A stretch of 64,000 bases of DNA, taken from assembly GCA_030066685.1 (NCBI GenBank), contig JASJBF010000002.1, positions 225,847 to 289,846 on the forward strand, written 5' to 3'. Source of the DNA: Kiloniellales bacterium (GTDB taxonomy: Bacteria > Pseudomonadota > Alphaproteobacteria > Kiloniellales > JAKSBE01). Under the pieces are notes generated by a model. It was not told the DNA's origin, ran no database searches, and saw only the letters and a program-made list of their open reading frames with translations. The translations under genes were made by a program, and so were the position numbers. Of this stretch, positions 7,832 to 31,047 are shown in pieces (positions within the stretch are counted from its first letter, which is position 1; the number at the start of each line of letters is the position of its first letter).

Positions 7832-8161
7832 TTACAGGCCGTCCGGCTTCTCGATCACCAGGATGCGGGCCTCGCCCAGGGGATGGGCGACGTGCTCGTC
7901 GCCGGCTTCTGCGAAGCAGACATCGCCGGCCGCCAAGTGCTGCGCCTTCTCGATCCCGGCTTCCCGGTAGTGCATCTCGACTAGATAACTGAGTGCGCCC
8001 GAGACCGCGGCGCCATCTTTGACGTATGGGTCGCAGGGTTTGTCGACGAGAAGCGCTCTTAGGCGACTTCCCGCAATCAGCAGCTTTCCGGGCGTTCTGA
8101 ATTCACATTCGTTCCACAGGCCTCTAGTGGAGCACCAATCTGCTGGGGAATTAACCTTCAC
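7832..8161 (-). CDS. small cupin-domain protein
   Basis: Motif GDVCFAEAGDEHVAHPLGEARILVIE fits cupin motif 2 (GD..x..G..H..H). GC drops across the N-terminal part of the gene. Confidence 0.5.
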   Translation of the reverse strand: MKVNSPADWCSTRGLWNECEFRTPGKLLIAGSRLRALLVDKPCDPYVKDGAAVSGALSYLVEMHYREAGIEKAQHLAAGDVCFAEAGDEHVAHPLGEARILVIEKPDGL

Positions 8162-8201
8162 TTAACCATAACTAATTATCACCTTTTATCTGTCACGTCT
8201 A

Positions 8202-9242
8202 ATGGGTCATTCAAGAGCATGGCCTCTTCCAATGCTGCCGGTTGATTGGTGCAAGATGAAACTTCAGAAAGATGGCGATGCAAGCGATTTCGGCGTCGAC
8301 GGGGGCGCTGGCAAAACAGAAGCAAGGCTTCATCGGAAACTCGGACGCTACGTCCTGATAAGTTTACTGGAAGGCCAAAAATCCAGTCGTTTGGCAACAA
8401 TAACTCTTGGAATGTTGCTTCCGGTCATTGTATCGGGATGCAGTTTAGTGAACTCGAATAAGCTAATGCGTGCAGATGCATACGTCACGCAAGGTTCAGC
8501 CCAGATCAAAGATGGAAAAGTAAAAGACCCTATCAATCTGGACTCTTTCAAGTTTAATGTTGGGGATACGGAGTCAGCTTACTCAAAGGCATCGAAAGCA
8601 CAAAATGGTGTCGACCGGAACCGTCTGCAGAGCTTCCTGCTTCGCCTTTCCGACGTGAACTGTGCTCGATATGTCGACGACATGTATGCCAGGGTCGCGG
8701 CCAGAAAGGTCGTGCTGAAGTCAATTACCCTTTTATCGGGTAGCGCAGCTGCTGTCGTGTCGGGAGAGCTGGCAAAAAGTGTCCTTGGTGCCGTTAGCGC
8801 CGTCGCAACAGGTACCGACGCGATCCTGGACGCCGAGATATTGCAGAACCAGGTAATTACACTGGTGGCTACCCAAATAAATGCACAGCGCGCATCTATC
8901 GCTGCAGAAATTCGACGAAAACGTGAAGAGGCTGATCAGCAGGGGAACCAATCACTGGTAACTTATTCCCTGGAAGGCGCAATCCATGACGTCGATCGAT
9001 ATCATCAAGCTTGTGGATTCCTGCCGGCAATTGTAGAGCTGACCAAGGAGTCCCAAAGGGTCAGGGTTACAAAGGCTTCACTTGATGCGGAGCGCGGTAA
9101 ATTAATGAAGGAGAAGGACGATATTGACACAAGGATCCGGAATCAAACAAATCAAAATATACTAAAGATCGAAAATAGAAGGCTTGAGCAAATCGGTCGT
9201 AGGTTGGAAGAGATCGACATCCTGCTCAGGGTTGCGGAGTAA
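8202..9242 (+). CDS. ORFan lipoprotein/membrane protein with a C-terminal coiled coil, in an AT-rich island
   Basis: Hydrophobic segment with lipobox-like LPVIVSGCS. C-terminal heptad-rich region ..DAERGKLMKEKDDIDTRIRNQTNQNILKIENRRLEQIGRRLEEI. Local GC about 45% against a 66% background. Start codon uncertain. Confidence 0.45.
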   Translation: MGHSRAWPLPMLPVDWCKMKLQKDGDASDFGVDGGAGKTEARLHRKLGRYVLISLLEGQKSSRLATITLGMLLPVIVSGCSLVNSNKLMRADAYVTQGSAQIKDGKVKDPINLDSFKFNVGDTESAYSKASKAQNGVDRNRLQSFLLRLSDVNCARYVDDMYARVAARKVVLKSITLLSGSAAAVVSGELAKSVLGAVSAVATGTDAILDAEILQNQVITLVATQINAQRASIAAEIRRKREEADQQGNQSLVTYSLEGAIHDVDRYHQACGFLPAIVELTKESQRVRVTKASLDAERGKLMKEKDDIDTRIRNQTNQNILKIENRRLEQIGRRLEEIDILLRVAE

Positions 9243-9555
9243 ATTGCTTCGCGATGTATTGTGTTGTCTGTAGAGATGTAGCAACGGTCCTTTGCGGAGT
9301 GAGCGTGGTCTCAGGACCGGAAGAATCTCGTGATCATAGTTTGGTAGATGGCAATGTACTGCCGGATCAGGCCCGAGCGGAATGCCGGCAGAAGCCAAGC
9401 GCCAGTCTCAAAGCGCTAACTGAGCTTCAATGAACCTGGAAACCAGTAGCGCCAAGTCGCATCCCTTGTATCGCAAGTCAAAGCCGGCGGGCCGGTTTGA
9501 TAAGTGGATGTGACATTCCTGCTATCTTTCACCTATTGCTCTTGAGGCCGTAGGA

Positions 9556-10680
9556 TCAGTCTTTGGTTGTTGGCGACAGCCGGGTCACGTGGCCCATCTT
9601 GCGCCCGGGCCGGGCCTCGGTCTTGCCGTAGAGGTGCAGCTTCTGGTTCCGGTCGCTCAACTGCGCGCGCCAGGCTTGCGCCTCGTCGCCCAGCAGGTTG
9701 CGCATCACGGCGTCCGAGTGGTGTTCGCTCGACCCCAGCGGCAGGCCCATCACCGCCCGGACGACCTGCTCGAACTGCGAGGTGACGCAGGCGTCCAGGG
9801 TCCAGTGGCCGGAATTGTGCGGCCGCGGGGCCAGCTCGTTGACCAGGACCTCGCCGTCCTCGGTGACGAACATCTCCACGGCGAGCAGGCCGACCAGGTC
9901 GAGCGCCTCGGCGAGTCGCCGGGCGGTCGCCTCGGCCCGCTCGGCGACCAGGGCGTTGGTCCGCGCCGGCGCGATGGTGGTGCGCAGGATGTGGCTTTCG
10001 TGCTGGTTCTCGACCGGCGGGTAGTCGGCCATCTCGCCGTCCAGCCCGCGGGCGACGATTACCGAGACCTCCAGCTTGAAGTCGACGAAGGCCTCCAGGA
10101 TGCCCTGCGCCTCCGGATTGCCGCCGGCCATCTGGGCCCAGGCCGCGGCCGGATCGCTCTCCGCCTCCAGGCGCACCTGGCCCTTGCCGTCGTAGCCCAG
10201 CCTGGTGGTCTTGAGCACCGCCGGGGTGCCGAAGTCGCGCAGGTGGCGGGCCAGCGCCTCGGGGCCGTCGATGGCGGCGTAGCGGGCCGTCGCAATCCCC
10301 TGGTTGCCGCAGAAGTCCTTTTCGCGCAGCCGGTCCTGGCAGATCGCAAGGACCTCGGCGCCGGGCCGCACGGCGACCGAACGGGCCAGGATCTCAACGG
10401 TCCGCAGCGGAATGTTCTCGAATTCGAAGGTGACCACGTCGACCGCCTTTGCGAAGGCGGCCAGCGCCGCCTCGTCGTCGTAGGCGGCCCGGGTGAACAG
10501 CGGGGTCACCTGGCTGGCCGGGCAGTCCGCCTCGGGGCAGTAGATGTGGCTGCGATAGCCCAGGGCCGCCGCCGCCAGGGCGGTCATGCGGCCGAGCTGG
10601 CCGCCGCCCAGGATGCCCAGGGTCGCGCCGGGGGCCAGAGGGGCGGGCGCAGGCTCGGTCATGCTCGGGTCCTCAGGCAT
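9556..10680 (-). CDS. purK: N5-carboxyaminoimidazole ribonucleotide synthase
   Basis: ATP-grasp protein; [29 protein letters not shown] match PurK. Overlaps purE by 8 nt. Confidence 0.92.
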
Positions 10681-19373: not shown

Positions 19374-19745
19374 TCAGAAGAGCGACAGGCTGCGTCTGTA
19401 GGGACGGCCGTGCAGCAGGACGAAGCGGCTGCGCACCCGGCGGACTTCCAGCAGTTCGCAGTCGGGCAGGCGCGCGGCCAGGAAGGCCGTGGCCTCGAGG
19501 TAGTCGTCGGCGCGCAGGCGGTGGACCCGCGGTTTCCGCCGTTCGCGGCACGCGAGCTGCACCCGGTAGATACCGCCGGCCAGGTAGTGAGCCAGCTCCG
19601 CCTCGATGGGGCGGTGGATGTAGGCCGGGCCGGCGAGGATGCCGGAGACGTTGAGGTAGATCTCCAGGCCCAGGCCCCCGACCAGGATCAGCGCCATCAG
19701 CAGCCAGTGGCGCGGCTTCATCTTGTGCAGCGGGATCCGCTTCAT
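19374..19745 (-). CDS. small single-pass membrane protein, tandem paralog 1 of 3 (unknown family)
   Basis: N-terminal transmembrane segment, then the conserved C-terminal ..Y.......L.C.........LRADD...A.AFLAARLPDCE. Confidence 0.5.
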   Translation of the reverse strand: MKRIPLHKMKPRHWLLMALILVGGLGLEIYLNVSGILAGPAYIHRPIEAELAHYLAGGIYRVQLACRERRKPRVHRLRADDYLEATAFLAARLPDCELLEVRRVRSRFVLLHGRPYRRSLSLF

Positions 19746-19748
19746 CGC

Positions 19749-20087
19749 CTAGATCCGCTTCATCCAGGTGACCTCGCAGTCCGGGAAGCGCTGCGCCAGG
19801 AAGGCCAGGGCCTCCTCGGAATCGTCGGCGCGCAGGGTGTTGGCCCGCTTCCGCGGCGCATTGCGACAGGACAGGCTGACGTCGTAGCGATGGCCCACGA
19901 CCATGTAGAGGGTCTCCGTCCTCAGGCCCCGGTGCAGGTAGTCGCGGCCGTCGCGGACCCCGGTCACGCTGACCGCGAAGCCCAGGAAGAGGCCGCTGGC
20001 GAGCAGCAGGAGCAGGGCGGTGCCGAGGCCGCCCTTGCGGCCCCGGGAGCGGGATTTTCGGCGCTTGCGGCCTCTGCGGTCGCTCAT
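19749..20087 (-). CDS. small single-pass membrane protein, tandem paralog 2 of 3
   Basis: Arg/Lys-rich N-terminus, transmembrane segment, then ..GRDYLHRG..VSLSCRN..LRADD..ALAFLAQRFPDCEV. Confidence 0.5.
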   Translation of the reverse strand: MSDRRGRKRRKSRSRGRKGGLGTALLLLLASGLFLGFAVSVTGVRDGRDYLHRGLRTETLYMVVGHRYDVSLSCRNAPRKRANTLRADDSEEALAFLAQRFPDCEVTWMKRI

Positions 20088-20097
20088 CTAGGCGTTC

Positions 20098-20403
20098 CTA
20101 GCCGAAATCCATGGAATGCTTGACCCGGCAGTCCGGAAAGCGTGCCTTCAGATAGGCCTTGGCCTCGCCCCAGCGGCGCGCGCGCAGGCGCACCACCCGC
20201 AGCTGCGGCGGCGTCTCGCAGGCCAGGGTCGCGGACATGGTGTGGCCCCAGAGCCGGAAGCGGAACTCGTTGTAGAAGTCCCGCGAGACGTAGTCGCCGT
20301 CCCGCGTCAGGCCGGCGGCGGCCAGGGCCGCGCCGACGAGGTAGACCGTCAGCACCACGGCCGCCGCCGCGGCGACGCTCTTGGCCGGCTTGGGAATCCG
20401 CAT
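20098..20403 (-). CDS. small single-pass membrane protein, tandem paralog 3 of 3
   Basis: MRIPKPAKS.. transmembrane segment ..DGDYVSRD..ATLACE..LRARR..AKAYLKARFPDCRV. The long N-terminal extension in the ORF track was rejected. Confidence 0.5.
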   Translation of the reverse strand: MRIPKPAKSVAAAAAVVLTVYLVGAALAAAGLTRDGDYVSRDFYNEFRFRLWGHTMSATLACETPPQLRVVRLRARRWGEAKAYLKARFPDCRVKHSMDFG

Positions 20404-20438
20404 GGACCGGAGCCTAGCAGGCCCCATTTTCCATAGGG

Positions 20439-22124
20439 TTAAGCCGTTTGCGACCCCGCCTTCTCCCTGAGCACGAACTTCTGGATCTTGCCGGTGGAGG
20501 TCTTGGGGAGCTCGCCGAAGATCACGGTCCGGGGGCACTTGAAGTGGGCCAGGTTGTCGCGGCAGAAGGCGATGATCTCCTCAGCCGTGGCCTCGGCGCC
20601 CTCCTTCAGCTCGACGAAGGCGTAGGGGGTCTCGCCCCACTTCTCGTCCGGCTTGGCGACCACGGCGGCCAGCGCCACCGCCGGGTGCTTGTAGAGCACG
20701 CCCTCGATCTCGATCGAGGAGATGTTCTCGCCGCCGGAGATGATGATGTCCTTGGAGCGGTCCTTGAGCTCGACGTAGCCGTCGGGATGCCAGACCCCGA
20801 GGTCGCCGCTGTGGAACCAGCCGCCGGCGAAGGCGGCCGCGCTGGCCGCGGGGTTCTTGAGGTAGCCCTTCATGACGATGTTGCCCTGGAGGAAGACCTC
20901 GCCCAGGGTCTCGCCGTCCTTCGGCACCGGCGCCAGGGTCTCGGCGTCGGCGACCATCAGGCCCTCCAGCACCGGATAGTTGACGCCCTGGCGGGACTTG
21001 AGTGCAGCCTGCGCCTCGCCCGGCAGGCCGTCCCAGGCCTCGTGCCAGGCGCAGACCACCGCGGGGCCGTAGGACTCGGTCAGGCCGTAGACGTGGGTCA
21101 CCTTGATGCCCTGCTGCTCCATGGCGGCCAGGACCGAGGCCGGTGGCGGCGCGGCGGCGGTCATCATCTCGACCCGCTGCGGGAAGCCGGCGCGCTGCTC
21201 TTCCGTGGCGCCGAGGATCATCTGCATGACGATGGGCGCGCCGCAGAGGTGGGTCACGCCCTGCTCGGCGAAGGCCCGGTAGATCGCCCCCGCCTCGACC
21301 CGGCGCAGGCAGACGTGGGTGCCGGCCAGCGCCGTGATGGTCCAGGGGAAGCACCAGCCGTTGCAGTGGAACATCGGCAGGGTCCAGAGGTAGACCGGGT
21401 GCGGCGCCATGCCCCAGGTCAGGACGTTGCCCAGGGCGTTCAGATAGGCGCCCCGGTGGTGGTAGACCACGCCCTTGGGGTTGCCGGTGGTGCCCGAGGT
21501 GTAGTTGAGCGAGATCGCGTCCCACTCGTCGCCGGGCAAGGACCAGGCGAAGTCCGGGTCGCCCTCGGCCAGGAAGCCCTCGTAGTCCAGGCTGCCCAGG
21601 CGCTTGCCGCCGGGTCCCTGGGGATCGTCGACGTCGATCACCAGGATCTCGCGGTCGAGCTCGGCCAGGGCCGCTTCGATGACCGGTGCGAACTCGGTGT
21701 CTGTGATCAGGACCTTAGCCTCGCCGTGATCGAGGATGAAGGCGATGGCGGCGGCGTCCAGGCGGACGTTGAGGGCGTTCAGCACCGCGCCGGCCATGGG
21801 CACGCCGTGGTGCGCCTCCCACATCGGCGGCGTGTTGGGCGCCATGACCGCGACGGTGTCGCCCTTGCCGATGCCGCGCTTGGCCAGCGCCGAGGCCAGG
21901 CGCCGGCAGCGCGCGTAGGCCTCGGCCCAGCTCCGCGTCTCGGCGCCGTGGACCACGGCCGCGCGCTCGGGGAAGACCGCAGCGGTGCGCGGCAGGAAGC
22001 TCAGCGGCGACAGCGGCGTGTAGTTGGCCGGGTTCTTCTCCAGGTCGGTCTCGTAGGGCCTGCTGCCCGCCGTCGGGTCTTGGGTCACGGTCCGCTGCCT
22101 CCCGGTTCCGTCTTCATTCTGCAC
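20439..22124 (-). CDS. AMP-dependent acyl-CoA synthetase/ligase (medium-chain type)
   Basis: AMP-binding motif YTSGTTGNPKGV plus ..GYGLTE..GWFHSGD..PKTSTGKIQK. Confidence 0.88.
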   Translation of the reverse strand: MQNEDGTGRQRTVTQDPTAGSRPYETDLEKNPANYTPLSPLSFLPRTAAVFPERAAVVHGAETRSWAEAYARCRRLASALAKRGIGKGDTVAVMAPNTPPMWEAHHGVPMAGAVLNALNVRLDAAAIAFILDHGEAKVLITDTEFAPVIEAALAELDREILVIDVDDPQGPGGKRLGSLDYEGFLAEGDPDFAWSLPGDEWDAISLNYTSGTTGNPKGVVYHHRGAYLNALGNVLTWGMAPHPVYLWTLPMFHCNGWCFPWTITALAGTHVCLRRVEAGAIYRAFAEQGVTHLCGAPIVMQMILGATEEQRAGFPQRVEMMTAAAPPPASVLAAMEQQGIKVTHVYGLTESYGPAVVCAWHEAWDGLPGEAQAALKSRQGVNYPVLEGLMVADAETLAPVPKDGETLGEVFLQGNIVMKGYLKNPAASAAAFAGGWFHSGDLGVWHPDGYVELKDRSKDIIISGGENISSIEIEGVLYKHPAVALAAVVAKPDEKWGETPYAFVELKEGAEATAEEIIAFCRDNLAHFKCPRTVIFGELPKTSTGKIQKFVLREKAGSQTA

Positions 22125-22296
22125 AGGGTCGGGGGCATTCTAGCGCCCTTGCAGGCCGGGAAAACCCGCTCCCACGCCCGGCGCGTACTCTGTTTCCGCC
22201 TTAACCAAGACTTCAATTCTTGGTGAAATGACTTCGAAACTCGCCCATATTCCTTGTGTGGGCTTCTTCTTTCGGACGACAGGACGGGTTTGATCC

Positions 22297-23373
22297 ATGC
22301 AGGACTTCGACAGCGCGGTTCGCCAGGCCGAAGAACAAATCAAGATCGCGCAGGAAAAGACGCTGGCCGTGAGTTCGGTCTTCGCGGAGGCCGAGGTGGC
22401 CAAGGCGGAAAGCCTGCCTATCGATATCGAGAACGCCAGCCTGCAGGACGTCGAGACGCACAACGAGGCGATGAACGCCAACATCGCCGAGCTGATTATC
22501 GGCCTCGACGAGGTCACGGCCGGATTCTCCAAGGAATTCGAGGCGATGCGCGACAAGACCGGCTGGGAGACCATGGTCGGCTGGTTCTCCAGCGCCAAGG
22601 CGGACAGCCTGAGGGCCGAGCGGATCCGGGTCGCCAGCATCGACGACAACCTGCAGGACCTGATCGGCAAGTCCGACGTCATCGTCGCAATTTTGGACCG
22701 GCAGCTCGCCACCCTGAACGAGCAGAAGGGCAAGGTCGAGACGCGCCTGGAGCAGACCCTTGCGGAGCGCGAGCAGGCCGTCGCCGAGCTGGAAAGCGTG
22801 CGCGCGGAGCTGCAGGCCCTGGACCCCAAGATCATCGACCTGGAGAACCGCATTTCCATGGCCACCGACCCGGCCGAGCGGACCCAGCTCGAGACCGAGC
22901 TGGCCAACCTCAACACCCGCCACAACGAGCTGGTCCAGGCCGAGCAGGTCACCCTGGCGCGCTCCCAGACGCTCGAGAAGTACATCGAGAAGGGCAAGAC
23001 CTGGGTCGATTCTCTGCAGAATCAGGCGGCGACCCAGATGGTCCTGATCAACAAGCTGCAGACCGACACCAAGCAGCGTGTGGTGCTCTACGACGCCCTG
23101 ACCAAGTCGCTCAAGACCGCCCAGCAGCAGGAGGTCGCGCACCGGATCAACGAGATCGGCAGCCAGACCGACAAGGAGGCCCAGGCGGCCATGGCGGCGA
23201 TCGGCGCGGCGACCCAGGCCCGCATCGCCGACATGATGGAGGCCCACGAGGACAACATCGTCTTCGCCCGCAAGGTCCTGGAGGAGAAGGCCAAGGCCGA
23301 CGAGCGCTTCGCCCGGCGCTTCGCCCGGGTCGTCGAGAAGCACGACAAGAACCTCTACGGCCAGCCGTCTTGA
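22297..23373 (+). CDS. coiled-coil protein of unknown function, first gene of the AAA+ operon
   Basis: A 358 aa, almost entirely helical protein with many heptad stretches (LEQTLAEREQAVAELESVRAELQALD..). No family recognised by eye. Confidence 0.6.
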   Translation: MQDFDSAVRQAEEQIKIAQEKTLAVSSVFAEAEVAKAESLPIDIENASLQDVETHNEAMNANIAELIIGLDEVTAGFSKEFEAMRDKTGWETMVGWFSSAKADSLRAERIRVASIDDNLQDLIGKSDVIVAILDRQLATLNEQKGKVETRLEQTLAEREQAVAELESVRAELQALDPKIIDLENRISMATDPAERTQLETELANLNTRHNELVQAEQVTLARSQTLEKYIEKGKTWVDSLQNQAATQMVLINKLQTDTKQRVVLYDALTKSLKTAQQQEVAHRINEIGSQTDKEAQAAMAAIGAATQARIADMMEAHEDNIVFARKVLEEKAKADERFARRFARVVEKHDKNLYGQPS

Positions 23374-23614
23374 CCTTGCCTGGGCCAGCCATCGGAACAC
23401 AAGCCGGTATGGGTTGCCGATAGTGTCCCTAGCGAAGCCACCTCTCCTGCCGTCATCCCCGGACTTGATCCGGGGATCCATCGAGTCGCCGGTACCATGG
23501 ATTGCCGGGTCAAGCCCGGCAATGACAGCTGGAGACGTATCTCTCGGCGAGAGATCTCGGCGGGCACTTGGCCACCTGCCGTCGCCTGATTCAGAACCGC
23601 GAACGAGCTGCTAG

Positions 23615-24739
23615 GTGCCCGCTTCTGGTCTCGAAATAAGCGACAGCGCCGCCTGCCGCGGCTACTTCGGCAAGTTCAGCGAGATCACGCGCCACATCCG
23701 TGGCCTGGCCAGCGAGATGTCGCTGGACGGGAGGTCGAAGGGGCTGGCCGAGATCGAGGCCGAGGTCTTGGAGGGCTACCTGCGCAGCCTGTCCGGCAGC
23801 CTGACTGCGCTTTCGATCAAGTACCTGATGACAGGGCTGGTCGGCGGCCGACGTCCCGGGCCCCTGACCATCGACCACACCGACAGCGGCTTCCCGCAGT
23901 TCCAGGAGATCGTTCGGATGGCCGGCGACCGCGGCGAGGCCCAGTCGCGCTTGGCCGAGTTGCCCCAGCGCGCTGCCCTCAAGGCCGAAATGGTCGACCA
24001 CCTGCTGCAGCATCGCAGCCTGCCGCGCGACCTGCAGCTCGACATGAGCCGGCGGGTCTACTACGAGATGCTGAGCGAGGTGCCGCTCTTCCTGGCCCAG
24101 AACCCGCCGCAGCTCATGCCCTTGGGCACCCGGGATCCGGAGACCCGGGGCCACCTCTGCCACTGGGCGGTCTACGACACCCAGCGCAACCTGCCCAACG
24201 TCTACCTGATGCAGCTGGAGGACAGCGGCGAGCGCTCCCTGACCCAGGACCAGCGGCGCTGGCCTCTCGTGGCCGAGCACCTGCTGGCGCAGTCGCTGTC
24301 CAGCCTCAAGCTGCTGACCATCGCCCGCGGCTTCGATAAGGACTTCCAGGACATGCACCCGAAGGTGCTGAAGCGCTTCCACCTCGGGCCGATGTACGCC
24401 AACAGGCTGACCCGGCACTCCGACACCGTGCAGGACATCCTGGCCGAGAGCGACGACGAGCCGGGCCAGGACTGGGTGCTCTGCTGGACCGTCGAGACCC
24501 TGCGCGCCAAGGGCTCGAAGAAGACCTCGACCGGGCTCTTCGGCTCGGTCCGGACCGAGATCTACGACATCGACCCGCAGGCGCCCGAGGAGGTCGAGGC
24601 CGGCGCCTCGGCCATCGAGCGCTGCATGATCCTGCCCTACCGGCCCTATCAGCGCCTGGTCGAGCGCGACCTGCCGCAGTTGCGCTCGGTCCGCAAGTAC
24701 GTCGTCGGGCCCGACGGCACGATCCTGCGCCGGGCCTGA
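23615..24739 (+). CDS. hypothetical protein, second gene of the AAA+ operon
   Basis: A 374 aa soluble protein with no recognisable motif. Start codon uncertain (GTG 23615 or ATG 23717). Confidence 0.55.
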   Translation: MPASGLEISDSAACRGYFGKFSEITRHIRGLASEMSLDGRSKGLAEIEAEVLEGYLRSLSGSLTALSIKYLMTGLVGGRRPGPLTIDHTDSGFPQFQEIVRMAGDRGEAQSRLAELPQRAALKAEMVDHLLQHRSLPRDLQLDMSRRVYYEMLSEVPLFLAQNPPQLMPLGTRDPETRGHLCHWAVYDTQRNLPNVYLMQLEDSGERSLTQDQRRWPLVAEHLLAQSLSSLKLLTIARGFDKDFQDMHPKVLKRFHLGPMYANRLTRHSDTVQDILAESDDEPGQDWVLCWTVETLRAKGSKKTSTGLFGSVRTEIYDIDPQAPEEVEAGASAIERCMILPYRPYQRLVERDLPQLRSVRKYVVGPDGTILRRA

Positions 24740-24770
24740 CCGTGACTCACAAGAGGGGACCAGAGAGCGC

Positions 24771-26729
24771 ATGACCGCCACCGCGCTGATGGAGATCAAG
24801 GAAGCGGAGATCCGCAAGCACTACCCGCAGACCTACCAGCTGCTGGCCGGCTTCGACTATGCGCCGCGGATCGGCCGCGCCAGCGAGGCGCCCGCCGCGC
24901 GCCGCGGCCGCTCGCCCGGCATTCCCGGGCGCCGGGGCTTCCGCTCGACCACCCCGGGCCTGGCGAACTCCGGCGCGCCCTCGGGCGTGGTCTCGCTCTT
25001 GAACCGGATCCAGGGCATCGACTCCGAGGACCCGCTGCAGAGCGAAGCCCAGGTCCACGTCCTGCGTAGCCTCAGGCGTGCGCTGGCGGTCGCCGAGGCC
25101 GTGGTCGAGCTCTACGGCGAGCTGACCCCGCTCAACCAGCTCAAGCAGGCCAACAGCCAGGGCCGCCTGGCCGAGGCGCAGAAGGCGGAGTTCGCCGAGC
25201 TGCTGTCGAGCGCGGCGCTGATCGGCCTCTTCACCTTCGCCAACCTTCTGGGCTTCCTGGTCCGCAACGGCGGCGAGGCCGGAGGGCCGGAGATCGAGGT
25301 CGGCGAGGTCGAGGAGATCGTGCTCGACAACATCAACGTCGCGCTCAAGGGCGCGCTCTGGGAGCTCGACCAGAAGCTCGCCCGCTTCGCCGAGACCGAC
25401 GCCGAGCTGGCCGCCGCGGTCACCGCCTACGCCGAGCGGCTGATGGACGAGGCCGCCCTGCGCAGCAGTGGGGCCCGCCACCTGGAGGCCTTCGTCGCCA
25501 AGACCTACCGGGTCGAGGCCGACGACTTCCAGATCGACGGCTTCACGCCGGCGCGCCGGGCCGCCTCGACGCCGCTGGTCATGACCTTCAAGAAGCCGGA
25601 GGAGGTGATCGGCAACCACATCGCCAAGCACCAGTGCATGAAGCTGGCGAAGATGCTGATGGCCTACGACTTCACCCGCCAGCTCAACCCCTTCGTCGAG
25701 CTGGGCGGTTTCATCTTCACCTTCATGGGCGACGGCAAGCCGGGCACCGGCAAGACCACCCTGATCCAGATGCTCGGCGGCCTGCTGAACGACTACTGCC
25801 AGGCGGCCGGCTATCCCTTCCGCTACGAGAACCTGTCGTCGGAGTCGATCGATTCCTACCAGGGCAAGTCGGGCCAGAACGCCAAAGCCTTCATCCGCAA
25901 CGTCATGGATCCCCACGTCATCGGCTTCGGCACCATCGACGACATCGACCAGATCGCCGGCCGGCGCGGCGACCGCCAGTCCTCCTCGGGCCAGCAGGAG
26001 ATCACCGCGGTGCTGATGGAGTCCTTCAGCGGGGCCAACACCGTGGTCCGCGGCAACTGCAGCTTCGGCATGTTCTCCAACTACCCGGAGAACGTCGATG
26101 ACGCCCTCCGGCAGCGCGCCGGGGCCCGCTTCCTGGTCGACGGCCCGCGCAGCGAGGCGGACTACATCGACATCCTCCACCTGCTGCTCGGCAAGAACCA
26201 CGACATCGCCGTCGGCAAGCACGAGCTCTACGCCGCCCAGGAGATCCGCCGCGCCGTCGCGGCTTCCTACGAGCAGCACGGCCGGCCGGCGGAGGACCAG
26301 CTGGAGGCGGTCTTCGAGGCGGTCGCCAAGGCCCAGGGGCCGCTCGACACCATCGCCAAGCTCGGCCGCTACCTCAAGGCGATCCAGGACGTCGACCAGC
26401 GCTTCACCGGCCGCGCGGTCAAGAACATCACCGATGCCATAAAGGTCCGCGCCATGGACGTCGAGCTGCCCGACGAATGGATGGCGGAGCCGGTACTCTT
26501 CCTGCAGCAGGACTACGAAACAAAGCTCAAGATGATCGGCGAGCTGATGAACCCGATCACCCCGGAGATGGTCCTCCAGGAGATCAACCGCTACGCCGAC
26601 GCCGAGTTCCGCTACGCCAACGTCTCCGACGAAACGGCGGTCGACGGCATGGTCCGCGACTTCCACCTGCAGGCCGAGGCCAAGCGCCGCTATATCGCCG
26701 ATGTCGGCGGAGGCGAGGGGCAGGGCTAG
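24771..26729 (+). CDS. classic-clade AAA ATPase with a roughly 300 aa N-terminal domain of unknown function
   Basis: Walker A GDGKPGTGKTTL; Walker B region HVIGFGTIDDID; sensor-1/SRH FSNYPENVDDALRQRAGARF, comparable with TNRPDVLDPALLRPGRF of FtsH. Confidence 0.85.
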   Translation: MTATALMEIKEAEIRKHYPQTYQLLAGFDYAPRIGRASEAPAARRGRSPGIPGRRGFRSTTPGLANSGAPSGVVSLLNRIQGIDSEDPLQSEAQVHVLRSLRRALAVAEAVVELYGELTPLNQLKQANSQGRLAEAQKAEFAELLSSAALIGLFTFANLLGFLVRNGGEAGGPEIEVGEVEEIVLDNINVALKGALWELDQKLARFAETDAELAAAVTAYAERLMDEAALRSSGARHLEAFVAKTYRVEADDFQIDGFTPARRAASTPLVMTFKKPEEVIGNHIAKHQCMKLAKMLMAYDFTRQLNPFVELGGFIFTFMGDGKPGTGKTTLIQMLGGLLNDYCQAAGYPFRYENLSSESIDSYQGKSGQNAKAFIRNVMDPHVIGFGTIDDIDQIAGRRGDRQSSSGQQEITAVLMESFSGANTVVRGNCSFGMFSNYPENVDDALRQRAGARFLVDGPRSEADYIDILHLLLGKNHDIAVGKHELYAAQEIRRAVAASYEQHGRPAEDQLEAVFEAVAKAQGPLDTIAKLGRYLKAIQDVDQRFTGRAVKNITDAIKVRAMDVELPDEWMAEPVLFLQQDYETKLKMIGELMNPITPEMVLQEINRYADAEFRYANVSDETAVDGMVRDFHLQAEAKRRYIADVGGGEGQG

Positions 26730-26736
26730 GGACCCC

Positions 26737-28089
26737 ATGGACCGGCTGACCGAGAACAAGCTGATCTACGGCAACCTTTTCGAGGTTGGGACCGAGGTGC
26801 TGCAGAACCGCTACAACCGCGCCCTGCAGCTGCTCTACGGCCGGCAGACCGAGCTCCAGCGCTTCCGCATCGACCAGAGCGGCTTCTCGCCGGAGGTCGC
26901 CGAGGAGCTCGACGACCCCGAGTACCTCAACCCCCACGGCTGCAACCGCATGTTCATCCTGCTCACCCTGGAGCAGGCCTACCTGCCGCTGCTGGACGCT
27001 ACCTTCTCCTCCAGCCGGGCGATCCTTCAGAACTACATCGACGACAACCGCGAGGCGCTCTTTGCGCTCACCGCCCGCGACGCGGTCTTCGGCGAACTGG
27101 AGGACTCGGTGTACAAGATCAAGACCCTGGGCGACCTCACCTCGATCAAGCACATCCGGATCAGGGCGCGCACGCCGAGCCGCCTGATCACCAAGGCCAA
27201 GCGCCTGAGCAGCAAGATCGAGGCCTTCATGGAGAGCGAGACGGCCTGGTCCGACGACGAAGCCTTGCAGCAGATCATCCAACTCGCCGAGACGGTCGGG
27301 GATGTGCGCCGGCAGCCGGTGATCCCGGGCCGGACCGACTACGAGGAAGGCAACTTCTTCACCACCCACATGGGCGGGCTCTATGTCTTCAACTCGGCGC
27401 GCAAGCCGACCCTGATCTACTGCAGTCCCGACCAGCAGGGCAGCCGGGTCTACGAGGACAAGACCCTGGGCTTCCGGCACATCCCGGTGAGCGATCGCGC
27501 CGCGGTCGCACGCTATTTGAAGGAGGCCGATCTGGTCGAGCCCCTGGACGGGCTCAAGCACCTGGATCCCGCGGAGCTGCTGCGCGAGAAGCTGGAGTTC
27601 GTCGCCGTCGACCACGCCGCGCAGAACGACGCCCCGGGCGAGATCTGGGACTTCGAGCCCATGGCCCTGCGCCGCTACCTGCAGCGGAATTTCGACGAGC
27701 TGCCGGCCGAGTTCCACGACGTCCAGGGCGCGCTCCGCGCCCTGGAGCAGGGCGAGCCCGGCGGAGGCCTGGAGCCGGAGTCGCCGGGCTACTTCTATCT
27801 GCTGCGCTCGGCCCGTCACAAGGACCGGGATCTGGTGAACCATCTCTTGGCGCGGCTGACGCCGCTCGACTTCCGCCAGCTCTTCATCTGCAACAAGGAG
27901 CTCTTCTACGAGCTCTACGAGACCTGGAACGACCGCAAGCGTGGCTATGTTGCGGAATACCTCGCGCGGCACTATCAGGGGCGGGCGGCCGAGGTCTGGC
28001 GCCATCTCTACGGCCGGACCAAGGTGGCCGAGGGGCCCTGGGGCGCGCGGCCGGCGGGCGAGCGCTCCGTCATCCCGGAGGCGGGGTGA
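26737..28089 (+). CDS. hypothetical protein, fourth gene of the AAA+ operon
   Basis: A 451 aa soluble protein with GAGGGG 8 nt before ATG 26737. No recognisable domain. Confidence 0.55.
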   Translation: MDRLTENKLIYGNLFEVGTEVLQNRYNRALQLLYGRQTELQRFRIDQSGFSPEVAEELDDPEYLNPHGCNRMFILLTLEQAYLPLLDATFSSSRAILQNYIDDNREALFALTARDAVFGELEDSVYKIKTLGDLTSIKHIRIRARTPSRLITKAKRLSSKIEAFMESETAWSDDEALQQIIQLAETVGDVRRQPVIPGRTDYEEGNFFTTHMGGLYVFNSARKPTLIYCSPDQQGSRVYEDKTLGFRHIPVSDRAAVARYLKEADLVEPLDGLKHLDPAELLREKLEFVAVDHAAQNDAPGEIWDFEPMALRRYLQRNFDELPAEFHDVQGALRALEQGEPGGGLEPESPGYFYLLRSARHKDRDLVNHLLARLTPLDFRQLFICNKELFYELYETWNDRKRGYVAEYLARHYQGRAAEVWRHLYGRTKVAEGPWGARPAGERSVIPEAG

Positions 28090-28130
28090 TGCCCGCCGGG
28101 CCGCGCAGGTGAAACGGGGGATCGGAAGCG

Positions 28131-28412
28131 ATGCTGTGGGTCTGGCTTGTCCGTTCGCTGGGTGTCTTCGCCGTCCTGACGGTGATCTACATCGCGCTCT
28201 CGCTGTTCAAGCGCTGGGAGGAGCGGCGCCGGCTCGGGGCCGAGTACGACAGCCTCCACGCCGGGGGCGGCGCGACCGAGGCCCGCGACCTCTACATCCA
28301 GCGCGGCATCCACAGCTACAACAGCTCGCTCAGGCGCAAGCTGCTCTGGGGCGTCTACCTGGTGCCGCTGATGGTGCTCGCGCTTCTGATCCTGCTGGGC
28401 TACCTCAGCTAG
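28131..28412 (+). CDS. small 2-TM membrane protein
   Basis: A 93 aa protein with two hydrophobic helices flanking a basic loop (KRWEERRRLGAEYDSLH). Confidence 0.5.
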   Translation: MLWVWLVRSLGVFAVLTVIYIALSLFKRWEERRRLGAEYDSLHAGGGATEARDLYIQRGIHSYNSSLRRKLLWGVYLVPLMVLALLILLGYLS

Positions 28413-28446
28413 GGAGCGGCAGGGGGACGCGAAAGGAAAGGCTGGC

Positions 28447-29109
28447 GTGAAGATCGTAATCTGGATGCTGAAGCTGCTGCCGCTGGTGGCGGCGATCCTG
28501 TTCCTGCACTTCTACCTGCCGTCCAAGGACGTCGTGCGGATCGTCGACACCGACGTCAAGCGCATGGACGTGGTCTCCAAGGACTTCGTCGGCGAGGGCA
28601 AGGACGGCGCGCCGGCCCGGACCCGTGACGTGCGCTTCATCAACGCGGTCTGGCCCGACGGCAAGCCCCGGGTCTACCGCAACGAGGAGACGGACTGGAG
28701 CTTCCCCTGGTACTTCAAGTTCGATTCCGGGAACCTCCAGACCGAGGCCCAGGACCTGCGGTCGACCAAGAACGAGCCGATCTGGGTGGTGATCACCCAC
28801 TATGGCTGGCGCTTCGAGATCCTGTCGATGTTCCCCAATGCGGTCGAGATCGAGCGCGTCGAAGATCCGGACCACTTCCCGGTCCCCTGGTTCCGCATCG
28901 TCTTCTTCGTTCTCTTCGCTGCCTTGGCGCTCTGGCTCTGGTACCTTTGGCGCTGGTTCGTCGAGGTCCGCTGGAAGCCCTTCCTGGCCGAGCTGGCGAT
29001 CGACGACCGCTTCGAGAACGCCTCCAACGCATTCGGCCAGGTCTGGCGCTGGTTCAAGGCCAACCTCGGCGACCGCTTCGGTGGCCGGCGCAAGCCCGGA
29101 CGCGGCTGA
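28447..29109 (+). CDS. DUF1523-like membrane protein
   Basis: GTG start after AAGGAAAGG. N-terminal transmembrane segment then FLHFYLPSKDVVRIVDTDVKRMD, which resembles DUF1523 members from memory. A second transmembrane segment lies near the C-terminus. Confidence 0.6.
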   Translation: MKIVIWMLKLLPLVAAILFLHFYLPSKDVVRIVDTDVKRMDVVSKDFVGEGKDGAPARTRDVRFINAVWPDGKPRVYRNEETDWSFPWYFKFDSGNLQTEAQDLRSTKNEPIWVVITHYGWRFEILSMFPNAVEIERVEDPDHFPVPWFRIVFFVLFAALALWLWYLWRWFVEVRWKPFLAELAIDDRFENASNAFGQVWRWFKANLGDRFGGRRKPGRG

Positions 29110-30900: not shown

Positions 30901-30973
30901 GCCGATGTAGCTCAGTGGGAGAGCGCCGGGCGCGAGCGCCCGGAGGTCGCGGGTTCGAGTCCCGTCATCGGAA
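30901..30973 (+). tRNA. tRNA-like gene with a non-canonical anticodon arm; identity undetermined, possibly a pseudogene
   Basis: Canonical D arm (GCTC-AGTGGGA-GAGC) and T arm (GCGGG-TTCGAGT-CCCGT), and a 6/7 paired acceptor stem. The anticodon arm is CCGGG-CGCGAGCG-CCCGG (8-nt loop) or a 6 bp stem with a 6-nt loop. There is no U at position 33 and a G1-A72 mismatch. Confidence 0.5.
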
Positions 30974-30974
30974 C

Positions 30975-31047
30975 CCGAATGTAGCTCAGTGGGTAGAGCA
31001 CTGGACTGATAATCCAGGAGTCGAGGGTTCGATTCCCTCCATTCCGC
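30975..31047 (+). tRNA. tRNA-Ile (anticodon GAU)
   Basis: Cloverleaf: acceptor CCGAATG/CATTCCG (C2-C71 mismatch), D arm GCTC-AGTGGGTA-GAGC, anticodon arm CTGGA-CTGATAA-TCCAG, T arm GAGGG-TTCGATT-CCCTC. It starts 1 nt after the preceding tRNA-like gene. Confidence 0.75.

Follow-up and report, generated by a model that had tools for sequence, protein, structure and literature searches.

Gene organisation of the cluster

The window analysed here is a stretch of 64,000 nt from contig JASJBF010000002.1 of a Kiloniellales bacterium (GenBank assembly GCA_030066685.1) and it harbours a cluster of six genes, here called g1 to g6, which is centred on a putative AAA ATPase. An initial annotation, made from the sequence alone, had proposed six co-directional open reading frames (ORFs) and all of them were found again on the + strand. 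The first, g1 (22297–23373, 358 aa), encodes an all-helical coiled-coil protein, g2 (23615–24739, 374 aa, GTG start) a soluble protein of an unnamed family and g3 (24771–26729, 652 aa) the predicted classic-clade AAA ATPase. The fourth member of the conserved core is g4 (26737–28089, 450 aa), a soluble DUF6638 protein, and it is followed by two lineage-specific membrane partners, g5 (28131–28412, 93 aa) with two transmembrane (TM) segments and g6 (28447–29109, 220 aa), a DUF1523 membrane protein. The intergenic spacers are, in order from g1 to g6, 241, 31, 7, 41 and 34 nt. For g4 there is an alternative ATG at 26701 and the start at 26737 is favoured by the orthologues and by the NCBI gene call P0241. 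Two proteins of a Kiloniellales MAG (metagenome-assembled genome), P0121 and this P0241, show 100% identity to those of the window. Upstream of g1 lies an acyl-CoA synthetase gene and, since it sits on the opposite strand, g1 starts the transcription unit. The GC content of the six-gene region is 0.645–0.69 compared to 0.676 for the whole window, and each of the six ORFs has length-conserved orthologues, showing that they are real beyond chance.

When analysing the intergenic region between g1 and g2 (23374–23614) it was found to be unusually long, 241 nt compared to ~35–95 nt in compact orthologous loci. It contains two inverted GGRTCAAGYCCGG units about 48 nt apart, at 23459–23471 (- strand) and 23507–23519 (+ strand), and this 13-mer, allowing at most 2 mismatches, occurs in 14 copies in the window against 5.2 expected. 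The pair has the appearance of a short intergenic repeat, palindromic in nature, that was inserted in the operon.

Family assignments

A Pfam scan gave a single match for g3, PF00004 (AAA; residues 322–455, 47.2 bits against a cutoff of 21.2), and revealed g4 and g6 as full-length members of DUF6638 (PF20343, E 3e-120, profile positions 1–422 of 439) and DUF1523 (PF07509, E 2.1e-60, profile positions 1–175 of 176), respectively, with nothing meaningful for g1, g2 and g5. The prediction that g5 is a two-TM protein and g6 a DUF1523-like one was borne out, with two hydrophobic segments in each, while g4, described as lacking any recognisable motif, matches DUF6638, which like DUF1523 is a Pfam family of unknown function. 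None of the six proteins matched NCBIfam. In PADLOC-DB 2.0 only AAA-level matches of g3 (TRIP13, E 1.8e-6, and a weak IetA) and coiled-coil-level matches to JetC and NsnC appeared, with no match for g2, g4, g5 or g6, and the PHROGs scan likewise gave AAA-level matches only. Profile searches of the PDB showed nothing credible for g1, g2, g4, g6 or the N-terminal domain of g3. DUF6638 is mentioned nowhere in the literature searched and DUF1523 appears, in the portions of text covered, just as an entry in lists. The earlier statement that the gene set corresponds to no named system holds across Pfam, NCBIfam, PADLOC, PHROGs and the PDB.

Conservation and distribution of the module

A genome scan with one genome per species showed relatives of g3 to be encoded in at least 552 genomes, and from these the 80 best loci were taken for comparison; orthologous loci are numbered from L001, the closest relative, onwards. 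The 80 loci represent Rhodobacterales, Stappiaceae/Cohaesibacter, Afifellaceae, Hyphomonadaceae-like genera (Hellea, Algimonas, Litorimonas and Robiginitomaculum), Kiloniellales-like bacteria and unclassified Alphaproteobacteria. Searching them by tblastn with the window proteins identified g1 in 75, g2 in 77, g3 in all 80, g4 in 71, g5 in 51 and g6 in 68, the misses being mostly at contig ends, and gene order and strand are the same in all 80 loci, which come from no fewer than four alphaproteobacterial orders. Compared to the window proteins, the median identity is 66.5% for g1 (74 loci), 63.6% for g3, 43.9% for g2, 42.3% for g6, 41.7% for g4 and 39.0% for g5. The medians of g1 and g3 are alike and well above the ~42–44% of g2, g4 and g6, indicating a similar and very slow evolution of these two proteins, which are 64–70% identical between alphaproteobacterial orders.

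More distant loci were retrieved from the genomic contexts of remote g2 homologues and from tblastn matches in a plasmid collection. In a metagenome-assembled genome (MAG) of Flavobacteriales (L083) the order is a g1-like gene, a g2-like gene, a RimB-like gene, two more genes, the AAA gene, DUF4328, DUF6638 and a TM protein, and in an unassigned contig of 41% GC (L087) it is g1, g2, a 54 aa TM protein, AAA and DUF6638. A Patescibacteria MAG (L092, 958 kb contig) contains three TM proteins, g1-like and g2-like genes, AAA, DUF6638 and two further TM proteins. Sinorhizobium meliloti (L089) has tdk, g1, g2, AAA, an inserted DUF559 gene with ISRm16, DUF6638, DUF2333 (TM) and fhs, and the ~0.9 Mb replicons of Vibrio parahaemolyticus and V. 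vulnificus (L090) carry g1, g2, AAA and DUF6638 followed by mfd. All four core proteins were confirmed by blastp in L083, L087, L089 and L090; the core calls in L092 rest on the g2 match, Pfam labels and two of the alignments described below, A5 and A6. The four-gene soluble core g1–g4 is conserved across four phyla, and this conserved neighbourhood agrees with the initial annotation, which had regarded the genes as a six-gene module, as far as the core is concerned; g5 and g6 are lineage-specific partners. The evolutionary unit is four soluble genes with interchangeable membrane partners and not six fixed genes.

The genes flanking the core differ in each lineage. It had been suggested that the rhodanese and UPF0114/YqhA genes downstream of the cluster might be co-regulated with it, and this did not survive the comparison since the 80 loci, inspected to a distance of 7 kb from the AAA gene, showed neither of them (0/80). 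Both were rejected as members of the unit, as was an SPFH gene, which together with the acyl-CoA synthetase gene is found near the cluster in L001 only. An apparent fusion of the AAA and DUF6638 proteins (P0247), considered as Rosetta-stone evidence, was also rejected; its sequence is riddled with frameshifts throughout, which makes it an assembly artefact.

A search of phage sequences with g1 gave no match, and in the plasmid collection 11 of 72,556 records matched, all of them replicons of at least 0.4 Mb or mislabelled chromosomes. Taken together with the synteny across orders and the host-like GC content, the module is chromosomal and neither a recent island nor mobile, as had been proposed from codon usage and GC. 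In PADLOC its components give nothing beyond the weak AAA-level and coiled-coil-level matches and it is no known defence system.

Some of the distant loci deserve a comment of their own. L089 (CP090106.1, S. meliloti Ak57) carries the DUF559 endonuclease gene and the ISRm16 transposase at 8914–10659, between AAA and DUF6638. The record is labelled pSymB, yet with a length of 3.7 Mb and with tdk, choVW and fhs on it, it is probably the chromosome. The Vibrio core (L090 = CP099927.1 and related records) is found on replicons of ~0.88–0.94 Mb that are annotated as plasmids, with 37% GC in the fetched stretch, and the AAA proteins of V. parahaemolyticus, V. vulnificus and V. metschnikovii fall into one cluster at 90% identity. 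This suggests that the Vibrio core sits on a shared megaplasmid or chromid and not in the core Vibrio genome. From its order next to choXWV and tdk, SMc02733 may be the AAA gene of S. meliloti. A literature search for the tags SMc02731–36 returned as sole mention a ChvI-bound fragment inside SMc02733, recovered in a ChvI DNA-binding screen as fragment F9, positions 2587012–2587177 of the S. meliloti 1021 chromosome (PMC3687685).

The AAA ATPase g3

The protein g3 consists of a helical N-terminal domain of ~300 aa, one AAA module and a conserved, family-specific C-terminal domain of ~190 aa. Two alignments were made, one of 21 close homologues (A1) and one of six distant ones with 24–51% identity across phyla (A5). 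The Walker A motif GKPGTGKT(T), noted already in the initial annotation, is present and its form G-x-PGTGK[TS] is invariant in both alignments. The same is true for pore loop 1, with Y363-Q364-G365 and S367 (Y-Q-G-x-S), for the sensor-1 residue N437 and the arginine fingers R449 and R453, and for several positions of the C-terminal domain. The Walker B motif is GTIDDID with D390-D391, and Asp-Asp is found in all homologues aligned, the distant forms being VDDAE and ADDAE; a canonical Walker B motif, hhhhDE with a catalytic Glu, was not found in any aligned g3 homologue. By these motifs the AAA module retains everything that is needed to assemble a ring and thread a substrate, the canonical catalytic Glu being the one exception.

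When the AAA module was compared to the PDB using phmmer, fidgetin-like 1 came first (E 1.8e-7), followed by YME1, Rpt4, VAT, katanin, Afg2, Vps4, Msp1, Pex6 and spastin. These matches span E values from 1.8e-7 to 1e-2 and only ~170 residues, so that the similarity is marginal, and the g3 family profile gave a single, equally marginal match to the AAA module of YME1 (E 6.5e-4). The second region of homology (SRH) quoted in the initial annotation is present in g3; the string ALRQRAGARFLVDGP aligns to AARRRFQKRLYIALP, and the printed alignment has VDDALRQRAGARFLVDGP against LDEAARRRFQKRLYIALP of fidgetin-like 1. In the light of what is generally known of the clades, our reading is that this would be the Vps4/katanin/fidgetin-style form and not the "PGRFD" form. 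Proteasomal and FtsH-type AAA proteins interleave with katanin, Vps4 and Msp1 among the matches and score as well as Vps4. With fidgetin-like 1, katanin, Vps4, Msp1 and spastin among its best PDB relatives, g3 can be assigned by homology to the classic clade of AAA ATPases, as had been predicted.

Residues 1–320 of g3 contain no Pfam domain and no MIT domain, and the profile of this N-domain found nothing in the PDB at E≤5. A TM helix at residues 144–165 was considered and rejected since the region is only moderately hydrophobic and, in distant homologues, accommodates polar residues; the helix is probably buried.

The coiled-coil protein g1

More than 4500 homologue clusters of g1 were found, the 120 closest listed being 68–100% identical and 356–371 aa long. 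The C-terminal half is near-invariant and the protein ends with K-H-D-x-N-L-Y-G (alignment A2). An H-x3-[YF]-G tail is kept in the homologues from Sinorhizobium, Vibrio, Flavobacteriales and Patescibacteria (alignment A6), and g1 is the most conserved component of the module. The AlphaFold2 model is all-helical (helices 49–94, 101–188 and 192–354) with a mean predicted local distance difference test score (pLDDT) of 62.7, and only its central long hairpin is confident.

The initial annotation had likened the gene set to ESCRT-III/Vps4 and PspA/Vipp1 modules and had guessed at a TelA-like fold for g1; homology of g1 to ESCRT-III, PspA or TelA could not be substantiated. A Pfam scan of 24 g1 homologues at E≤5 gave only coiled-coil noise, with no TelA (PF05816), PspA_IM30 or Snf7 match for any of the 24. 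Profile alignments of g1 using hhalign reached a probability of 1.9% with a sequence taken as that of E. coli PspA and of 0.4% with a Pfam-verified PspA_IM30 protein from L074. Foldseek searches of the g1 model against the PDB returned no match at E<0.01, and the top 50 matches, which contained no ESCRT-III, PspA or Vipp1 chain, were generic coiled coils such as MukB, SH3BP5, MSMEG_4306, CT398, SteB and chemoreceptors. On the combined outcome of the Pfam, hhalign and Foldseek analyses these proteins were rejected as detectable homologues of g1. These homology tests do not touch a functional, ESCRT-like analogy, which stays viable.

The soluble partners g2 and g4

Searching 1.84 billion cluster representatives with g2 using phmmer gave 407 clusters at E≤1e-3, down to 24% identity, and the full-length matches are all 340–415 aa. 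The gene adjoins the AAA gene directly upstream in most loci and is part of the same cluster in every locus examined. Strong conservation is seen in several blocks (alignment A4), among them HWAVYDSQxNLP and LKLLTIAxGFDxDFxDxHPKxLRRxHxGPMYS, of which LKLLTIAxGFDxDFxDxHPK is invariant. No Pfam or PDB match was found for g2, and ten distant members of its family contain no Pfam domain. The possibility that g2 and g4 are paralogues was rejected (hhalign probability 0.2%). In the model of g4 (pLDDT 80.2, predicted template modelling score 0.75) an alpha/beta N-terminal region is followed by a helical C-terminal one, and no matching fold was found for it in the PDB.

Membrane partners

Apart from the moderately hydrophobic helix in the N-domain of g3 there is no TM-like segment in g1–g4. 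In g5 the hydrophobic segments are located at residues 1–28 and 69–93 and enclose a basic central loop of ~40 residues, which by the positive-inside rule probably faces the cytoplasm. The layout of g6 is an N-terminal TM segment, a domain of ~115 aa, a second TM segment at 143–170 and a basic, Trp/Arg-rich tail; by the same rule the domain is probably periplasmic and the tail cytoplasmic.

In Stappiaceae-type loci where g5 was not detected the gap between g4 and g6 is 15–56 nt, which is too short for g5 to fit, and no g5 was detected in the loci from Sinorhizobium, Vibrio, Flavobacteriales and Patescibacteria. Both g5 and g6 are lineage-specific membrane partners, and other lineages carry different membrane proteins at the cluster. 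In Rhodobacterales and Hyphomonadaceae-like loci the g3–g4 gap is 150–2400 bp and usually contains + strand ORFs of ~100–130 aa with 3–4 predicted TM segments, one to three per locus and often in tandem, one family being found in 20 loci and another in 7 (for example L025 8917–9611, L067 5615–6563 and L018 9237–9862). With a g3–g4 spacer of only 7 nt, the window has no such gene at this position. With the exception of Vibrio, all lineages have integral membrane proteins of varying families within the cluster or next to it, among them DUF2333 in Sinorhizobium, DUF4328 with a second TM protein in Flavobacteriales, the 54 aa TM protein in L087 and the five TM proteins of the Patescibacteria locus L092. 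The idea that the variable DNA between g3 and g4 is random cargo was rejected as it consists mostly of small + strand multi-TM genes; real insertions were found in a few loci, such as ISRm16 and DUF559 in S. meliloti.

The region upstream of g1

When analysing the region upstream of g1 an element of the form [T/A/G]TG-N17/18-CYYATNT was found 38–53 nt upstream of the ATG in 34 of 75 loci, while shuffled sequences gave 0.7 loci on average and never more than 2. It takes forms such as TTGAAA-N14-CCTATAT or ATGTAAA-N14-CCTATCT, and the element was not found upstream of g2 or g4 in the loci scanned. It fits the alphaproteobacterial heat-shock consensus CTTG-N17-18-CYTATNT. It also fits the signature of RpoHI and RpoHII in Rhodobacter sphaeroides, TTG at -35 and TAT at -12 (PMC10673084). 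The same motif precedes a gene for a 155 aa Hsp20 protein, confirmed by Pfam, as TTGAAC-N17-CCCATGT in 8 loci, and a PspA/IM30 gene, likewise confirmed, in two (L074 and L078). Hsp20 genes are located within 7 kb of the cluster in L018 (771–1235), L027, L034, L035, L037, L051, L056 and L079, and a PspA/IM30 gene lies a few kb upstream of g1 in L074 (2668–3339, - strand), L078 and L052. Among 74 loci the region upstream of g1 contained EcfG and LexA boxes in 0–1 cases and a full CtrA box in 3.

In the window the promoter-like element is located at 22223..22250 on the + strand (GTGAAA-N15-CCCATAT), ending 47 nt upstream of the ATG of g1, and L001 has GTGCAA-N15-CCCATAT. The strict pattern TTG-N17-CYYATNT has 0 matches in the window, which marks the copy as degenerate. 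S. meliloti has a looser version upstream of g1. From these promoter sequences, RpoH control of the module is moderately supported in Rhodobacterales and Hyphomonadaceae-like genomes, and for the window itself the indication of such control is weak.

The putative -10 element and the 5' leader of g1 are overlapped by a terminator-like hairpin at 22243–22263 (+ strand), in which GCCCATATTCCTTGTGTGGGC precedes a T-rich stretch. This may be an attenuator or a chance occurrence, a scan of the region for hairpins of this kind giving 7 sites against 4.3 expected. In 7 loci (L005, L006, L013, L025, L031, L049 and L053) an RpoH-like motif was also seen inside the coding sequence of g5 (codons D-A-R-D-A-Y-V), where it precedes the DUF1523 start by ~100 nt; it may serve g6 as an internal promoter or may simply reflect coding constraint.

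Other features of the window

An Rfam scan identified no RNA elements except two adjacent tRNA genes on the + strand at 30901–30973 and 30975–31047 (53.9 and 68 bits), just downstream of the UPF0114 gene. This pair, 30901–31047, marks the end of the co-directional gene run. On the - strand, just upstream of the acyl-CoA synthetase gene, three tandem small ORFs of 123, 112 and 146 aa are located at 19374–20538; they share the C-terminal motif ...LRADD..EA.AFL..RFPDCEV... and an N-terminal hydrophobic segment and look like a paralogous gene triplet. At 8001–10000 the GC content falls to 0.547, compared to 0.64–0.71 elsewhere in the window, and this stretch may be a foreign insertion.

Proposed function and alternatives

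Sequence and synteny together suggest that the module encodes an undescribed, membrane-proximal AAA remodelling machine with a stress or housekeeping function, a reading to which we give a probability of about 0.45. It would be one conserved chromosomal protein machine with g3 as its engine, a single-ring AAA ATPase and, since the pore loop and the arginine fingers are intact, most likely a hexameric unfoldase or remodeller. We infer that g3 forms hexamers and threads its substrates, and that the long coiled-coil hairpin g1 is either a structural partner of g3 or its substrate, perhaps a polymer or scaffold that is built up and later dismantled, where the invariant C-terminal tail of g1 may act as a docking or engagement tag for g3. 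Both g2 and g4 would act as cofactors or adaptors, and obligatory ones. The machine would work at the cytoplasmic face of the inner membrane, tethered to or acting on small membrane proteins, here g5 and the DUF1523 protein; alternatively, g3 with g1, g2 and g4 as adaptors might act on small inner-membrane proteins. Its role would be the maintenance of membrane or proteome under stress, probably as part of a heat-shock or envelope-stress response, perhaps under RpoH control, and not in phage defence. A more specific version, an ancient membrane-maintenance machine, conserved from Patescibacteria to Proteobacteria, in which a Vps4/Msp1-like ring cyclically remodels a non-ESCRT g1 polymer at the inner membrane or extracts small membrane proteins, with g2 and DUF6638 as cofactors of novel fold and under heat-shock control, as an independent analogue of ESCRT-III/Vps4 or PspA, is possible but rather doubtful.

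Several observations weigh against the proposal of a membrane-proximal remodelling machine. The D2 module of NSF also has an Asp at the catalytic position of Walker B and hydrolyses ATP very slowly, so the invariant Asp-Asp of g3 may mean a slow turnover; it could mean slow or no hydrolysis, in which case the ring might serve, in place of a motor, as a scaffold or as a nucleotide-dependent switch. The proposed roles of the other parts amount to guilt by association, since g1, g2, g4, g5, g6 and the N-domain of the AAA protein are without characterised homologues. TM segments are missing from all four core proteins and the Vibrio cluster lacks a clear membrane partner. The g1 model is of low confidence (pLDDT 62.7) and polymer formation is pure inference. 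As for regulation, the promoter copy in the window is degenerate, with GTG in place of TTG and N15 spacing, Vibrio has a sigma-70-like TTGACA-N16-TAATAT instead, and close relatives within Ruegeria make up many of the loci with the element, so that the count of 34 out of 75 overstates the independent support.

The alternative that survives best, unlikely as it is, is a soluble unfoldase or disaggregase for protein quality control in the heat-shock regulon, with g1, g2 and g4 as substrate adaptors and the membrane genes as incidental or secondary neighbours. Such a protein would agree with the RpoH-like element common to the module and the Hsp20 genes, with the Hsp20 genes within 7 kb in 8 loci, with the threading pore loop of g3 and with the solubility of all four core proteins, the Vibrio cluster having no obvious membrane partner. 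It leaves out of account, however, that independent lineages repeatedly have membrane genes, from different families, within the cluster at the g3–g4 or g2–g3 junction, and an Asp-Asp Walker B is unusual for an unfoldase of high turnover; furthermore, no protease or chaperone gene is consistently linked to the cluster.

It is improbable that the module is a highly diverged but true ESCRT-III/PspA–Vps4 system, with g1 homologous to ESCRT-III/PspA and g3 orthologous to Vps4/CdvC. The Vps4/fidgetin-like SRH, the presence of Vps4, katanin, spastin and Msp1 among the PDB matches, the modelled helical hairpin of g1 and the PspA/IM30 gene near the cluster in 3 loci would all suit it, and bacterial PspA/Snf7 operons with classical AAA ATPases are known (PMC11237479). 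The 24 g1 homologues without a Snf7 or PspA_IM30 match, the hhalign probabilities of 1.9% and 0.4% against PspA and the absence of ESCRT-III, PspA and Vipp1 chains from the top 50 Foldseek matches do not, and neither does the N-domain of g3, which lacks any MIT-like or other PDB relative, while proteasomal and FtsH-type AAA proteins score as well as Vps4.

To an anti-phage or conflict system, with the AAA protein as sensor or switch and the membrane proteins as abortive-infection effectors, we give just as little credence. An ATPase combined with uncharacterised proteins and small TM proteins is an architecture like that of many defence systems, g3 has its weak PADLOC match to TRIP13 (E 1.8e-6), the gene content between g3 and g4 is variable and the module is found on large low-GC Vibrio replicons common to several species. 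Defence systems are, however, normally patchy and fast-evolving, whereas g1 and g3 are 64–70% identical across alphaproteobacterial orders and the cluster is widespread, with the AAA gene in at least 552 species genomes. In addition g1, g2, g4, g5 and g6 match no PADLOC family, there are no phage or small-plasmid copies, the GC content is host-like and the module is retained also on the Patescibacteria contig of ~1 Mb.

Very improbable is a nucleoid- or DNA-associated machine with g1 as an SMC/MukB/Rad50-like coiled coil and g3 as its loader or remodeller, for although g1 weakly matches JetC/MukB-like proteins (E 0.0015), Rad50 and MukB, and the cluster adjoins mfd in Vibrio and tdk in Sinorhizobium, these matches are typical coiled-coil noise far below family cutoffs, there is no ABC head, hinge or DNA-binding domain, the flanks vary by lineage and membrane partners recur. 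Six unrelated housekeeping genes adjacent by chance, which the 241 nt g1–g2 spacer and the missing annotation might suggest, are already refuted by the order and strand kept in 80 loci and by the four-gene core in four phyla.

Few molecular motors are as well understood as the classic-clade AAA ATPases. The g3 family is found in hundreds of species from four phyla, with the model organism S. meliloti and a ~1 Mb contig of Patescibacteria among its carriers, and it is accompanied by three fixed partners without characterised relatives, one of which, DUF6638, has a confident predicted structure and no fold match in the PDB. The identity of 64–70% of g1 and g3 between alphaproteobacterial orders suggests a central cell-biological role. 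Should the module be a machine for membrane remodelling or for the extraction of membrane proteins it would add a new branch to bacterial envelope homeostasis, beside PspA/Vipp1 and FtsH, and would offer AAA research a natural motor with an Asp-Asp Walker B. The system is directly testable as it is carried by S. meliloti, by Ruegeria and other Rhodobacterales, by Roseibium and by Vibrio strains with the ~0.9 Mb replicon.

Comparison with known systems

The closest resemblance is to Vps4/CdvC with ESCRT-III and to the bacterial operons combining PspA/Snf7 proteins with AAA ATPases (PMC11237479), where a single-ring classic AAA protein with a helical N-domain likewise stands beside an all-helical hairpin protein, and further likenesses are the Vps4/fidgetin-type SRH, the membrane proteins in the operon and a flavour of stress response. 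The differences are that g1 is not detectably homologous to ESCRT-III or PspA and is longer (358 aa), that the N-domain of g3 is ~300 aa and not MIT, that Walker B is Asp-Asp, in contrast to Vps4, and that g2 and DUF6638 are without counterpart in these systems. The arms of the g1 hairpin are also longer than those of ESCRT-III proteins.

With fidgetin-like 1, katanin, spastin, Msp1/ATAD1, FtsH/YME1 and Rpt proteins g3 shares Walker A, the aromatic pore loop 1, sensor 1 and the two arginine fingers, but it has no protease domain, TM anchor, MIT or OB domain and its C-terminal domain of ~190 aa is unique to the g3 family. The Walker B of NSF D2 is hhhhDD as in g3, while g3 differs in keeping both the pore-loop aromatic residue and the two arginine fingers, in having a single AAA module and in that no SNARE-like partners were recognised. 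A surrounding system without described counterpart is here combined with a motor of a known kind, that of the classic-clade AAA remodellers.

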